Shown piece by piece: positions 8,794 through 9,879 of a stretch of DNA of 13,711 nt. The stretch comes from a virus: the IMG/VR virus record IMGVR_UViG_3300005563_001145; one strand, 5' to 3'. Position 1 is the stretch's first letter. Every line of letters starts with the position of its first letter. The position numbers and the translations under genes were made by a program. The notes beneath the pieces were generated by a model. The model searched no databases. It was not told where the DNA came from and saw only the letters and a list, made by a program, of their open reading frames with translations.

Positions 8794-9879
8794 ATGAAGG
8801 ACGACGAGATCATCGACGTCTACTACGTCGAAGACACCTGGGTCTGCTCATCCTGCAAGCACAAGAATAAGGGGCACGATCTTCGCTGCACCAAGTGCGA
8901 TTCACCGAAGGAGAAGAACGAGACCTATACGACTGGCGACATCAACCAGCGCATCACCGATCCCGAGAAGCTGAAGGAAGCGACCGCCGGCGCAAACCGG
9001 ACCTGCCCCTTTTGCAAGGCCGACAACCGCATCTTCCATGGCAGGTGCAAGGAGTGCGGTGCAACGGTCGATGAGCAGGCTCCTCCGCCAACACAGTCGC
9101 GGCTGAAGCCTACAAAGCCGGCGGGGCCGTTCGTTCGGCCCGCCAACCCAGCTCGCCTGAAGATCGCTAAGTTCAGGAAGACACGAATTCTTTTGGCTGC
9201 GGCTTGCATCGTCGGGTGCATCGCGATCCCAGCAGGAATCTACAACCTGTTCAGGACGCACCGTGTCACTGTCGTCGTTGCCAAGACGCAGTGGTCGGTG
9301 ACCCGCGTTCTCCAGCAGCGCTTCACCAGGCACGGATCGGGCTGGGGAGAGCCCTTCAGCGCCTTCAATAGCACCTGTGAGACTAGGCTCCGCGGCTACG
9401 TTCGCTGCCATCCGCACGACTGCAATCCCTACCAGGAGAGCTACTCCTGCCGGCCGCACCGATGCAACTGCTCGACATACACCACGACATCGAGCCAGCG
9501 GAACGGGTACAGCCGGGTCGAGACTCACCGAAGCTGCGATACCTGCTACGACACGTGCTACCGGACTCGATACCGAACCTGCTACGACAGTTGCCCGGAT
9601 TACGGATCTTGGTGCGAATACGACTACTATTCTTGGGAGAACACGGCGAAGCAGGAGACGTCGAACACCACCTGCCGAACTACGGAGCCAGATCTCAAAG
9701 CCGTCGGTGATCTTCAGCGAATAGAGCGCTACGAGCACTACTCTATCGAGTTCACGCACGGCAAGAAGAACTGGTCGTACGAACCGAAGAACGAGTACGA
9801 GTACGCCGCAATGTGCTCGTCGAAGACATGGGAGGCTGACGTCTCGCACGTCAGTTTCACACCACTCCCGCCAAAGTAG
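8794..9879 (+). CDS. Membrane protein: two N-terminal RanBP2-type zinc fingers, one TM helix, Cys/Tyr/Thr-rich extracytoplasmic domain
   Basis: WVCSSCKHKNKGHDLRCTKCDSP fits W-x-C-x2-C-x3-N-x6-C-x2-C exactly. A second copy is TCPFCKADNRIFHGRCKECG. The TM segment is ILLAAACIVGCIAIPAGIY, preceded by basic KIAKFRKTR (cytoplasmic N-terminus). The C-terminal domain has many Cys, including a CDTCYDTCYRTRYRTCYDSC low-complexity repeat. An AGGGGGA SD is present. Confidence 0.6.
   Translation: MKDDEIIDVYYVEDTWVCSSCKHKNKGHDLRCTKCDSPKEKNETYTTGDINQRITDPEKLKEATAGANRTCPFCKADNRIFHGRCKECGATVDEQAPPPTQSRLKPTKPAGPFVRPANPARLKIAKFRKTRILLAAACIVGCIAIPAGIYNLFRTHRVTVVVAKTQWSVTRVLQQRFTRHGSGWGEPFSAFNSTCETRLRGYVRCHPHDCNPYQESYSCRPHRCNCSTYTTTSSQRNGYSRVETHRSCDTCYDTCYRTRYRTCYDSCPDYGSWCEYDYYSWENTAKQETSNTTCRTTEPDLKAVGDLQRIERYEHYSIEFTHGKKNWSYEPKNEYEYAAMCSSKTWEADVSHVSFTPLPPK

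Follow-up and report, generated by a model that had tools for sequence, protein, structure and literature searches.

The locus and its gene

The window analyzed here is the whole stretch of viral DNA in IMG/VR record IMGVR_UViG_3300005563_001145, 13,711 nucleotides (nt) in length, and the gene of interest is a complete coding sequence for a protein of 361 amino acids, taken from the list of open reading frames (ORFs) of the window. The gene lies between that of ThyX, whose stop codon occupies positions 8771 to 8773, and the genes rIIA (9888 to 11969) and rIIB (11982 to 13121), both on the plus strand and both labeled "lysis inhibitor" in PHROG. The genes are tightly packed. The ORF begins 20 nt after the ThyX stop, rIIA follows it after 8 nt and rIIB follows rIIA after 12 nt, so that the gaps to the two flanking genes are 8 to 20 nt, and the plus strand between these neighboring genes was found to contain nothing resembling a promoter or terminator. 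From its N terminus to its C terminus, the protein consists of two zinc ribbons, a Pro-rich linker, one predicted transmembrane (TM) helix and a Cys-rich C-terminal domain, and the arrangement of Cys residues in this last domain points to a disulfide ladder whose length varies across the family. The features and their positions are listed in Table 1.

Table 1. Features of the zinc-ribbon membrane protein gene, with positions in the window
Feature	Position	Strand	Basis
Shine-Dalgarno-like sequence AAGGGGGA	8781..8788	+	read from the sequence; 5 nt 5' of the ATG
Coding sequence, predicted bitopic zinc-ribbon/putative cystine-ladder membrane protein	8794..9879	+	ORF list; homologs of 34-60% identity, alike in length and architecture
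Zinc ribbon 1 (aa 16-35; W16, C18, C21, N25, C32, C35)	8839..8898	+	regular expression, Pfam PF00641 and PDB profile matches
Inter-finger motif ITDPEKLKEATAG (consensus VTDPxLLxxAxAG)	8953..8991	+	column composition; AF2 helix aa 57-64, pLDDT >90
Zinc ribbon 2 (aa 69-88; C71, C74, C85, C88)	8998..9057	+	Cys conservation; PDB profile matches
Pro-rich linker (aa 96-128), predicted disordered	9079..9177	+	pLDDT <50 at residues 103-105 and 113-127
Single predicted TM helix (aa 130-153), N-in/C-out	9181..9252	+	hydropathy, AF2 helix, positive-inside bias
Ectodomain beta strand 1 (aa 156-184; conserved V162, W167)	9259..9345	+	AF2 pLDDT 95-98; conservation
Hairpin arm 1 (aa 191-236)	9364..9501	+	AF2 strand aa 191-234; Cys counts, covariation
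Hairpin tip N237-G238	9502..9507	+	NG in 128/142 relatives; gap between strands 191-234 and 239-291
Hairpin arm 2 (aa 239-291)	9508..9666	+	AF2 strand; Cys covariation nested with arm 1
C-terminal region (aa 294-358) with a small, beta-barrel-like subdomain at its end; clade-specific pair C294/C341	9673..9867	+	

The GC content at codon positions 1, 2 and 3 of the ORF is 0.49, 0.50 and 0.77, as expected of a coding frame. A 99%-identical copy of the gene is present in a 210-kb IMG/VR contig (locus L007), and 14 of the 17 nucleotide differences between the two copies are synonymous. The first-pass annotation had named absence or frameshifting of the ORF in related genomes as grounds for doubting its prediction, and neither was seen: the ORF is intact in L007 and in relatives of 56 to 60% amino acid identity. 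An ORF of 347 amino acids overlaps the gene on the minus strand (8902 to 9945). It resembles a shadow ORF within coding DNA of high GC content, since both conservation and the pattern of synonymous substitutions favor the plus frame.

Apart from two patches, the window is 99.8% identical to L007. One patch is described with the neighboring genes below. The second, small mosaic patch is the segment at about 8890 to 9015, inside the gene, where 12 mostly synonymous differences from L007 are clustered. The amino acid changes relative to L007 are K34E, I54V and P119Q, all in the cytoplasmic part of the protein, and the neighbors of the gene encode proteins identical to those of L007.

The protein contains 24 Cys residues, at positions 18, 21, 32, 35, 71, 74, 85, 88, 138, 142, 195, 205, 210, 219, 224, 226, 248, 251, 255, 263, 267, 274, 294 and 341. 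Eight of these belong to the zinc ribbons, 2 to the TM helix and 14 to the part predicted to lie outside.

Two zinc ribbons in the N-terminal region

The protein had been annotated with two perfect RanBP2-type zinc fingers, a description that proved exact for finger 1 and not for finger 2. Finger 1, WVCSSCKHKNKGHDLRCTKC, is an exact match to the pattern W-x-C-x2-C-x3-N-x6-C-x2-C. The Pfam model Zn_ribbon_RanBP (PF00641) recognizes only this finger, over residues 13 to 40, and its score of 24.1 bits does not reach the gathering cutoff of 27 bits. In finger 2, RTCPFCKADNRIFHGRCKEC, the Cys spacing and the Asn residue are present, and R69 occupies the position at which the RanBP2 consensus has Trp. 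Across the family, finger 2 follows the pattern W-x-C-x-[YF]-C-x4-R-x5-C-x2-C-G-A, in which the Trp is replaced by R69 in the window protein, and N78 is not conserved. When the family profile was compared with the PDB, the matches over finger 1 were fingers of RanBP2, Nup153, Mdm2, RBM10, YAF2, TAB2 and HOIP; those over finger 2 were zinc-ribbon regions of archaeal ArnA, together with 8s05_C. Finger 2 is a ribbon subtype other than that of RanBP2.

The relatives display a similar mixture. The full RanBP2 consensus (W-x-C-x(2,4)-C-x3-N-x6-C-x2-C) occurs once in 87 of 142 full-length relatives and twice in 6 of them. Among the 10 closest relatives, 5 match the Pfam RanBP2 model at an E value of ≤1 (best, 5.3e-7), and one relative, P0140, passes the Pfam threshold with 41.9 bits. 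The models DZR (PF12773; best E value, 1.4e-6) and Zn_Ribbon_1 (PF13240; 7.7e-8) match 3 of 10 close relatives, and do not match the window protein. These Zn_Ribbon_1 and DZR matches, along with "Double zinc ribbon protein" labels among viral structure matches, weaken the earlier remark that such fingers are unusual in prokaryotic viruses.

The eight ribbon Cys residues are the sole invariant columns in an alignment of 55 sequences with a mean identity of 25%, and each of them is kept in 134 to 141 of the 142 full-length relatives. The other strongly conserved positions are W16, G27, R79 and the VTDPxLLxxAxAG motif between the fingers. Structure prediction with AlphaFold2 (AF2) gave a predicted local distance difference test (pLDDT) score of 74 with 10 sequences and 91.3 with the 55-sequence alignment; the latter model was used throughout. 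The predicted structure shows the two ribbons and the conserved short helix as one compact module spanning residues 1 to 95. Given the invariant Cys residues, each Cys4 site would be expected to hold one Zn2+.

We also considered the residues that determine specificity in eukaryotic fingers. NZF-type ubiquitin binders use T-F, and ZRANB2-type binders of single-stranded RNA use an aromatic residue or Arg after the Asn; the Ran-contacting L-V is visible as CLVQN in the RanBP2 fingers of the PDB profile alignments. The residues after C21 are K-H-K in the window protein and G/K-H/T-x in the family. N25 is followed by Lys in the window protein and by Lys, Arg, Leu or Pro in the family, which here reads x-x-x-N-x-G-R. 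When inspected by eye, the fingers did not match the L-V (Ran), T-F (ubiquitin) or post-Asn aromatic (single-stranded RNA) motifs.

These observations make it doubtful that the fingers have a eukaryote-like RanBP2 function, tethering single-stranded RNA, a ubiquitin-like protein or a Ran/Ras-like GTPase such as MglA. K-H-K stands in place of L-V or T-F, the aromatic residue of ZRANB2-type fingers is missing after N25, finger 2 has no conserved Asn, and the window protein scores below the Pfam threshold. Such a function would be in keeping with the consensus fit of finger 1, its PDB profile matches to RanBP2, Nup153, RBM10, TAB2 and HOIP, the above-cutoff score of P0140, and the presence of homologs in Myxococcota, a phylum in which small Ras-like GTPases occur (PMC11135422). 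Taken together, the sequences describe a RanBP2-like finger scaffold and do not support the transfer of a eukaryotic function to it.

Linker and membrane topology

The linker is variable in length: among the full-length relatives, the hydrophobic stretch that follows it begins anywhere from about residue 104 to residue 238. In the window protein, the sole strong hydrophobic stretch is at residues 132 to 150, with a Kyte-Doolittle mean of 2.35 over 19 residues, and AF2 predicts a helix at residues 128 to 153. Among the 142 relatives, the 15 residues flanking the helix contain on average 3.09 Lys and Arg residues on the N-terminal side and 1.59 on the C-terminal side (Wilcoxon P = 1.7e-15), and the N-terminal side is the richer one in 100 relatives. 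This positive-inside bias, together with the nested pairing of the ectodomain Cys residues described below, argues for an N-in/C-out orientation. The results support a type II, single-pass protein, predicted to reside in the inner membrane, and agree with the original proposal that the fingers face the cytoplasm on one side of a single TM helix.

A predicted Cys-paired hairpin in the ectodomain

The C-terminal domain comprises residues 156 to 361 (206 residues). The first-pass annotation had credited this domain with more than 20 Cys residues; we count 14. The Cys-rich string that it singled out, CDTCYDTCYRTRYRTCYDSC, is located at residues 248 to 267. AF2 predicts long strands at residues 156 to 184, 191 to 234 and 239 to 291, followed by a small beta/alpha subdomain at residues 308 to 358. 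The second and third strands form the arms of a hairpin. Arm 1 carries C195, C205, C210, C219, C224 and C226, with CxPHxCN motifs, and arm 2 carries C248, C251, C255, C263, C267 and C274. A period-4 C-Y-D-T repeat in arm 2 places Thr and Tyr on one face and Cys and charged residues on the opposite face, and a weak 12-nt tandem repeat is present in the DNA encoding this arm (9533 to 9561).

The two arms change in step. With the tip taken at N237-G238, and arm 1 counted over residues 192 to 236 and arm 2 over residues 239 to 281, the number of Cys residues is the same in both arms in 132 of the 142 relatives, at values between 3 and 18 in each arm (r = 0.99). The lengths of the arms also covary (Spearman coefficient, 0.92). 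A phi matrix of the Cys columns reveals strictly nested covariation of the pairs 226-248, 224-251, 219-255, 210-263, 205-267 and 195-274. For example, both members of the pair 210/263 are present in 109 relatives, only one in 4 and neither in 29; for 205/267 the corresponding numbers are 114, 3 and 25. Fisher P values for the individual pairs range from 7e-7 to 1e-25, in statistics that ignore phylogeny.

The geometry of the pairs is that of a hairpin. The sums of the paired positions around the N237-G238 turn are 474, 475, 474, 473, 472 and 469, values compatible with an antiparallel hairpin in which arm 1 contains a few bulges. The cross-strand pairs thus stand in the antiparallel register that defines a cystine ladder, and the AF2 strands agree with this register. 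Further nested pairs occur in other members of the family, at columns 232/242 and 212/260 and as one insertion pair. A tip-proximal pair present in 120 of the 142 relatives is absent from the clade of the window protein, and the pair C294/C341, held by that clade, is seen in only 5 relatives. The equal Cys counts of the arms and the nested gain and loss of pairs point to a disulfide ladder of variable length. In the window protein, the model and the covariation would give six disulfide rungs and one extra disulfide (294-341), formed outside the cytoplasm. The charge bias and the pairwise nested covariation speak for the earlier suggestion that the Cys-rich domain is outside and disulfide bonded, with the bonds themselves being putative.

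Relative P0111 (487 amino acids) has four tandem repeats in each arm, of the CNCTGGDTYDCNPRQVPYE type in arm 1 and of the CETCTKTxYETCTRPRT type in arm 2, which bring its Cys content to 18 plus 18. It is the clearest case of coordinated lengthening.

A cluster of bound metal is another way to account for so many Cys residues. The C-terminal domain would in that case be a cytoplasmic or periplasmic metallothionein-like, Zn or Fe-S domain, an idea encouraged by some His residues (CHPHDC, CRPHRC) and one CxxC (C248-C251). The PH motifs are missing from most relatives (many have no PHxC at all), the fold is kept in some members with only 6 to 8 ectodomain Cys residues, and, by the charge bias, the domain would not be in the cytoplasm. 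Furthermore, the Cys residues covary as nested pairs and not as quartets. Odd counts per arm (7, 9, 3 and 5) are common, indicating that the units are one-plus-one pairs rather than Zn(Cys)4 sites, and the total number of ectodomain Cys residues is even in 118 of the 142 relatives. We consider a metal cluster very improbable, and the paired covariation and frequently odd counts per arm led us to reject it. The domain did not qualify as a match to DUF2500/YhhM (Pfam PF10694), a small beta-barrel (PDB 3q6c).

Distribution of the family

When 1.84 billion cluster representatives were searched with a profile, 2,354 of them (clusters at 50% identity) matched at an E value of ≤1e-3, including 328 at ≤1e-30. 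Nearly all of the matches listed have four CxxC motifs, then a single strong hydrophobic helix and then a C-terminal domain of 205 to 260 residues, and nine homologs with 34 to 60% identity share the length and layout of the window protein. A homolog search that started from the alignment of 55 sequences yielded just 12 proteins. PHROG, NCBIfam and PADLOC contained no match to the family (PADLOC was run on the window protein and four relatives), and Pfam recognizes only the zinc ribbon in the window protein and its relatives. The roles suggested in the first-pass annotation (receptor or sensor, superinfection exclusion, lysis) had no PHROG, PADLOC or NCBIfam match to support them.

Relatives were found in 13 IMG/VR loci, on contigs of 27 to 424 kb. 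The longer contigs of close relatives encode PARP, Fic, DnaJ, Cpn60, aminoacyl-tRNA synthetase and papain-like peptidase, which are typical auxiliary genes of jumbo phages. Among 50,697 GenBank phages, no cultured relative was detected by megablast with the whole window or by tblastn with the protein. The genome and metagenome scans used one Trp-rich peptide pattern, making the taxonomic range a lower bound. In the scan of GTDB with this pattern, relatives were present in the Myxococcota, namely, Polyangiaceae, Sandaracinaceae, Hyalangium versicolor and other Myxococcales. The Myxococcota copies have a host-like GC content at third codon positions, the only copies with a host-like composition, and their neighbors are ordinary cellular genes (OmpA-family, 5'-nucleotidase, GGACT, FGE-sulfatase, sigma-54 activator and LytS-type kinase).

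One further copy, P0161, is located at positions 10001 to 11182 of locus L020, in metagenome-assembled genome GCA_964458485.1. Here the gene is a single-gene island of 55 to 69% GC in a genome of 37.6% GC, adjoining a lysine biosynthesis cluster of the lysW/lysX type on one side and a PBP2 gene on the other. The same junctions are repeated in L021 and L022, making three independent assemblies in all, and no flanking insertion sequence element or clear repeats were found at the island. As the sharp GC island is seen in all three assemblies, the L020 copy is a recent horizontal transfer of a lone gene. We rejected the alternative of an ancestral, native cellular gene, the gene being a foreign GC island.

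This mobility raises the possibility that the protein is a stand-alone factor in superinfection exclusion, defense or anti-defense, that is, a self-sufficient membrane protein encoded by a single gene, which would bar the entry of a second phage or would set off or counteract an abortive response. Such a factor would explain the movement of the gene by itself into the island of L020, and it would fit a family common to jumbo phages and Myxococcota chromosomes, with phage copies residing among early or auxiliary genes such as those for NADAR, Fic, PARP, rII and RNA ligase. PADLOC has no match for it, the sampled Myxococcota loci have no recognizable defense-island neighbors, and the protein is without a recognizable effector domain. 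We regard this explanation as possible, yet unlikely.

Gene neighborhood

The neighborhood was surveyed by clustering over 19 loci, by iterated profiles for rIIA, rIIB, ThyX and the major vault protein (MVP), and by Pfam on the distant loci. In the closest clade, the order ThyX, target gene, rIIA, rIIB is kept by L001, L002, L004 and L007. Loci L005 and L006, which are shorter, contain ThyX, the target gene and the start of rIIA before the locus ends. In distant phage loci, the neighbors are genes for peptide deformylase, a VWA protein, a KaiC-like ATPase, NADAR, NT5C, SpoU, a PurA-like protein and RNA ligase, and iterated profile searches found neither rIIA nor rIIB within 10 kb of the homolog. 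Relatives of rIIA among cultured phages have at most 35% identity. The rIIB protein has a long, acidic, Asp/Glu-rich segment in its C-terminal part (about nt 12700 to 12950).

The position of the gene could suggest a component of lysis timing, a holin- or antiholin-like protein such as T or RI of T4, which would act with the adjacent rIIA/rIIB in controlling lysis or its inhibition. The gene is directly 5' of these two "lysis inhibitor" genes, the order is conserved in the four loci named above and partially in two more, and the protein has a single N-in/C-out TM helix and a large periplasmic domain, as does T4 holin T. However, it matches no PHROG family of any kind, the immediate neighbors (ThyX and rIIA) include no endolysin or spanin gene, and rIIA/rIIB are absent from the surroundings of the homolog in every more distant phage locus. 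Conservation peaks in the cytoplasmic zinc-ribbon module, a part without counterpart in known holins. The Myxococcota chromosomal homologs, in their non-phage contexts beside ordinary cellular genes, also argue against a purely lysis-specific role. We judge a role in lysis timing to be improbable. rIIA/rIIB as a functional partner was rejected on the present evidence, the synteny being confined to the closest clade.

Several other genes of the window and its relatives deserve description. The gene at 510 to 1877 (plus strand) encodes an adenylosuccinate synthetase with 77% identity to positions 3 to 1238 of L007. Against the otherwise 99.8% identity to L007, this region marks a recombination patch. 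PHROG labels the protein PurZ, a label that we did not adopt because PurA structures are the best PDB matches and the protein retains the GDEGKG motif; a role in Z-genome synthesis is not established. At 1874 to 3307 (minus strand), a LigD-type 3'-phosphoesterase domain is fused to an ATP-dependent DNA ligase. The 145-amino-acid product of 3344 to 3781 (plus strand) weakly matches a tRNA-ligase cyclic phosphodiesterase domain (E value, 0.0057) and also PHROG 36523, and RNA ligase genes stand beside the target gene in relatives L001 and L003. These ligase and phosphoesterase genes suggest a nucleic acid repair set.

At 3785 to 6580 (plus strand), the window encodes a 931-amino-acid homolog of the eukaryotic MVP, with matches to Pfam MVP_shoulder (1.4e-23), a weak Vault_3 repeat and PDB MVP chains (E value, about 3e-16, over residues 529 to 803). 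It has 68 to 69% identity to its counterparts in L001 and L004 to L006, is near-identical in L007 and has no PHROG match. PARP-like genes with WGR, PARP_reg and PARP catalytic domains are found just 3' of rIIB in three relatives (L001, 16432 to 17562; L002, 15620 to 17050; L004, 12343 to 13779). The setting of the target gene is a tightly packed block of nucleotide metabolism and auxiliary genes, probably an operon of the early or middle class in an uncultured jumbo phage.

DISCUSSION

Our results describe a family of membrane proteins in which the most conserved part is the ribbon module, the tether to the membrane is flexible and the ectodomain appears rigid and variable in length. This combination favors a membrane-spanning adaptor or sensor, which would operate in the manner of the bitopic zinc-ribbon proteins ZitP, GltJ and TcaA of bacteria. 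In the mechanism that we propose, the ribbon module would be tethered to the TM helix by the Pro-rich linker, about 35 disordered residues, and would dock to a conserved cytoplasmic partner at the inner membrane, probably a protein and less likely a nucleic acid. Outside the cytoplasm, the Dsb machinery of the host would presumably oxidize the ectodomain Cys residues to disulfides, yielding a rigid rod whose length could be set between 3 and 18 rungs over the family by matched insertions in both arms. The cystine-ladder rod and the terminal barrel may then contact or gauge a component of the envelope. For the phage, the benefit would lie in an early or auxiliary role in takeover or protection of the host at the level of the envelope. 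We consider this bitopic model, a structural element and adaptor in one, to be about evenly balanced between right and wrong, and the probability of any specific phenotype to be much lower.

Several points weigh against this model. The topology is based on hydropathy and charge bias, and the pairing of Cys residues is read only from covariation and the positions of AF2 strands. The covariation ignores phylogeny, and the pairs that join 195, 205 and 210 with 263, 267 and 274 are lost as a block in one clade. Judging from the strand lengths, the TM helix meets the sheet partway along, which makes the simple picture of a periplasm-spanning stalk uncertain. No neighbor is conserved across the distant phage, Myxococcota and metagenome loci, so guilt by association gives nothing. 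No ZitP or GltJ (7Z0K) chain, the adaptors compared below, was among the PDB profile matches at an E value of ≤10. The copies in NCBI are all annotated as "hypothetical protein," e.g., WP_224367823.1 of Hyalangium versicolor.

The stronger conservation of the ribbon module relative to the ectodomain suggests a conserved target in the cytoplasm, one that may be exploited by phages. Finding this target could reveal a new mechanism of host takeover or exclusion. A bolder proposal concerns the ectodomain: that it is an undescribed module, a ladder-stapled rod or ruler with its length set by repeats, coupled through the TM helix to a docking module of ribbons and spread, by jumbo phages and by single-gene transfers like that of L020, as a self-sufficient device that would connect an envelope cue with a conserved cytoplasmic target. 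We put this forward tentatively, as an idea considerably more apt to be wrong than right. If true, the rod could serve as a rigid periplasmic ruler or probe, for instance in a new exclusion or takeover factor. Members of this large, unannotated family occur both in jumbo phages that are uncultured and in Myxococcota, and a testable structural signature is now available to define them. A ladder of up to 18 rungs would be of interest for oxidative folding and protein design. The practical payoff will be modest until a phenotype is known.

Comparison with known systems

The order of modules has precedents. TcaA of Staphylococcus aureus, which is linked to teicoplanin and wall teichoic acid phenotypes, and similar Gram-positive proteins share the order of zinc ribbon, one TM helix and extracytoplasmic beta-rich domain. 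The NCBIfam model teico_TcaA gave a weak, insignificant match (E value, 0.069) to a Myxococcota homolog. The match is confined to the ribbon, and the ectodomains are unrelated. Holin T and antiholin RI of T4, whose history is tied to the r genes, likewise span the membrane once and carry a periplasmic domain. In contrast to the protein described here, these phage proteins lack zinc ribbons, and neither a PHROG match nor a sequence match connects them with the family, which is also present in bacterial chromosomes. RanBP2-type fingers, such as those of Nup153, RanBP2, ZRANB2 and NZF proteins, resemble finger 1 in its full spacing and in its G/D-x-P-K ending. The window protein differs in being prokaryotic or viral, membrane tethered and below the Pfam cutoff, with a second finger of another subtype.

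The closest parallels in architecture are ZitP and GltJ, which share the layout found here: a Cys4 ribbon at the N terminus, in the cytoplasm, is connected by a flexible linker to a single TM helix, and a periplasmic domain follows. The zinc ribbon of ZitP from Caulobacter binds PopZ (PMC5182063, PMC5182065), and that of GltJ from Myxococcus binds MglB and its own intramolecular linker (PMC11135422). In contrast, the window protein has two ribbons rather than one, an unrelated ectodomain and a phage origin. The analogy is an architectural one only, and the GYF, DUF3426 and TonB-C-like domains were not detected by Pfam.

The putative ladder has its counterparts among small peptides. Theta-defensins, gomesin and tachyplesin-type peptides share an antiparallel hairpin with disulfide rungs between the strands, and have about 18 residues and two or three disulfides (PMC13001179 and others). 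In the literature searched, the term cystine ladder was found only for such beta-hairpin peptides of about 18 residues, and an expandable Cys ladder of up to 18 rungs per hairpin appears to have no described bacterial or phage counterpart there. Compared with these peptides, the predicted hairpin of the window protein has about 100 residues and six rungs (3 to 18 in relatives), is anchored to the membrane and has no sequence relationship to them. The order of zinc ribbon, TM helix and ectodomain is thus known from other systems, whereas the ectodomain with its expandable Cys ladder appears to be new.

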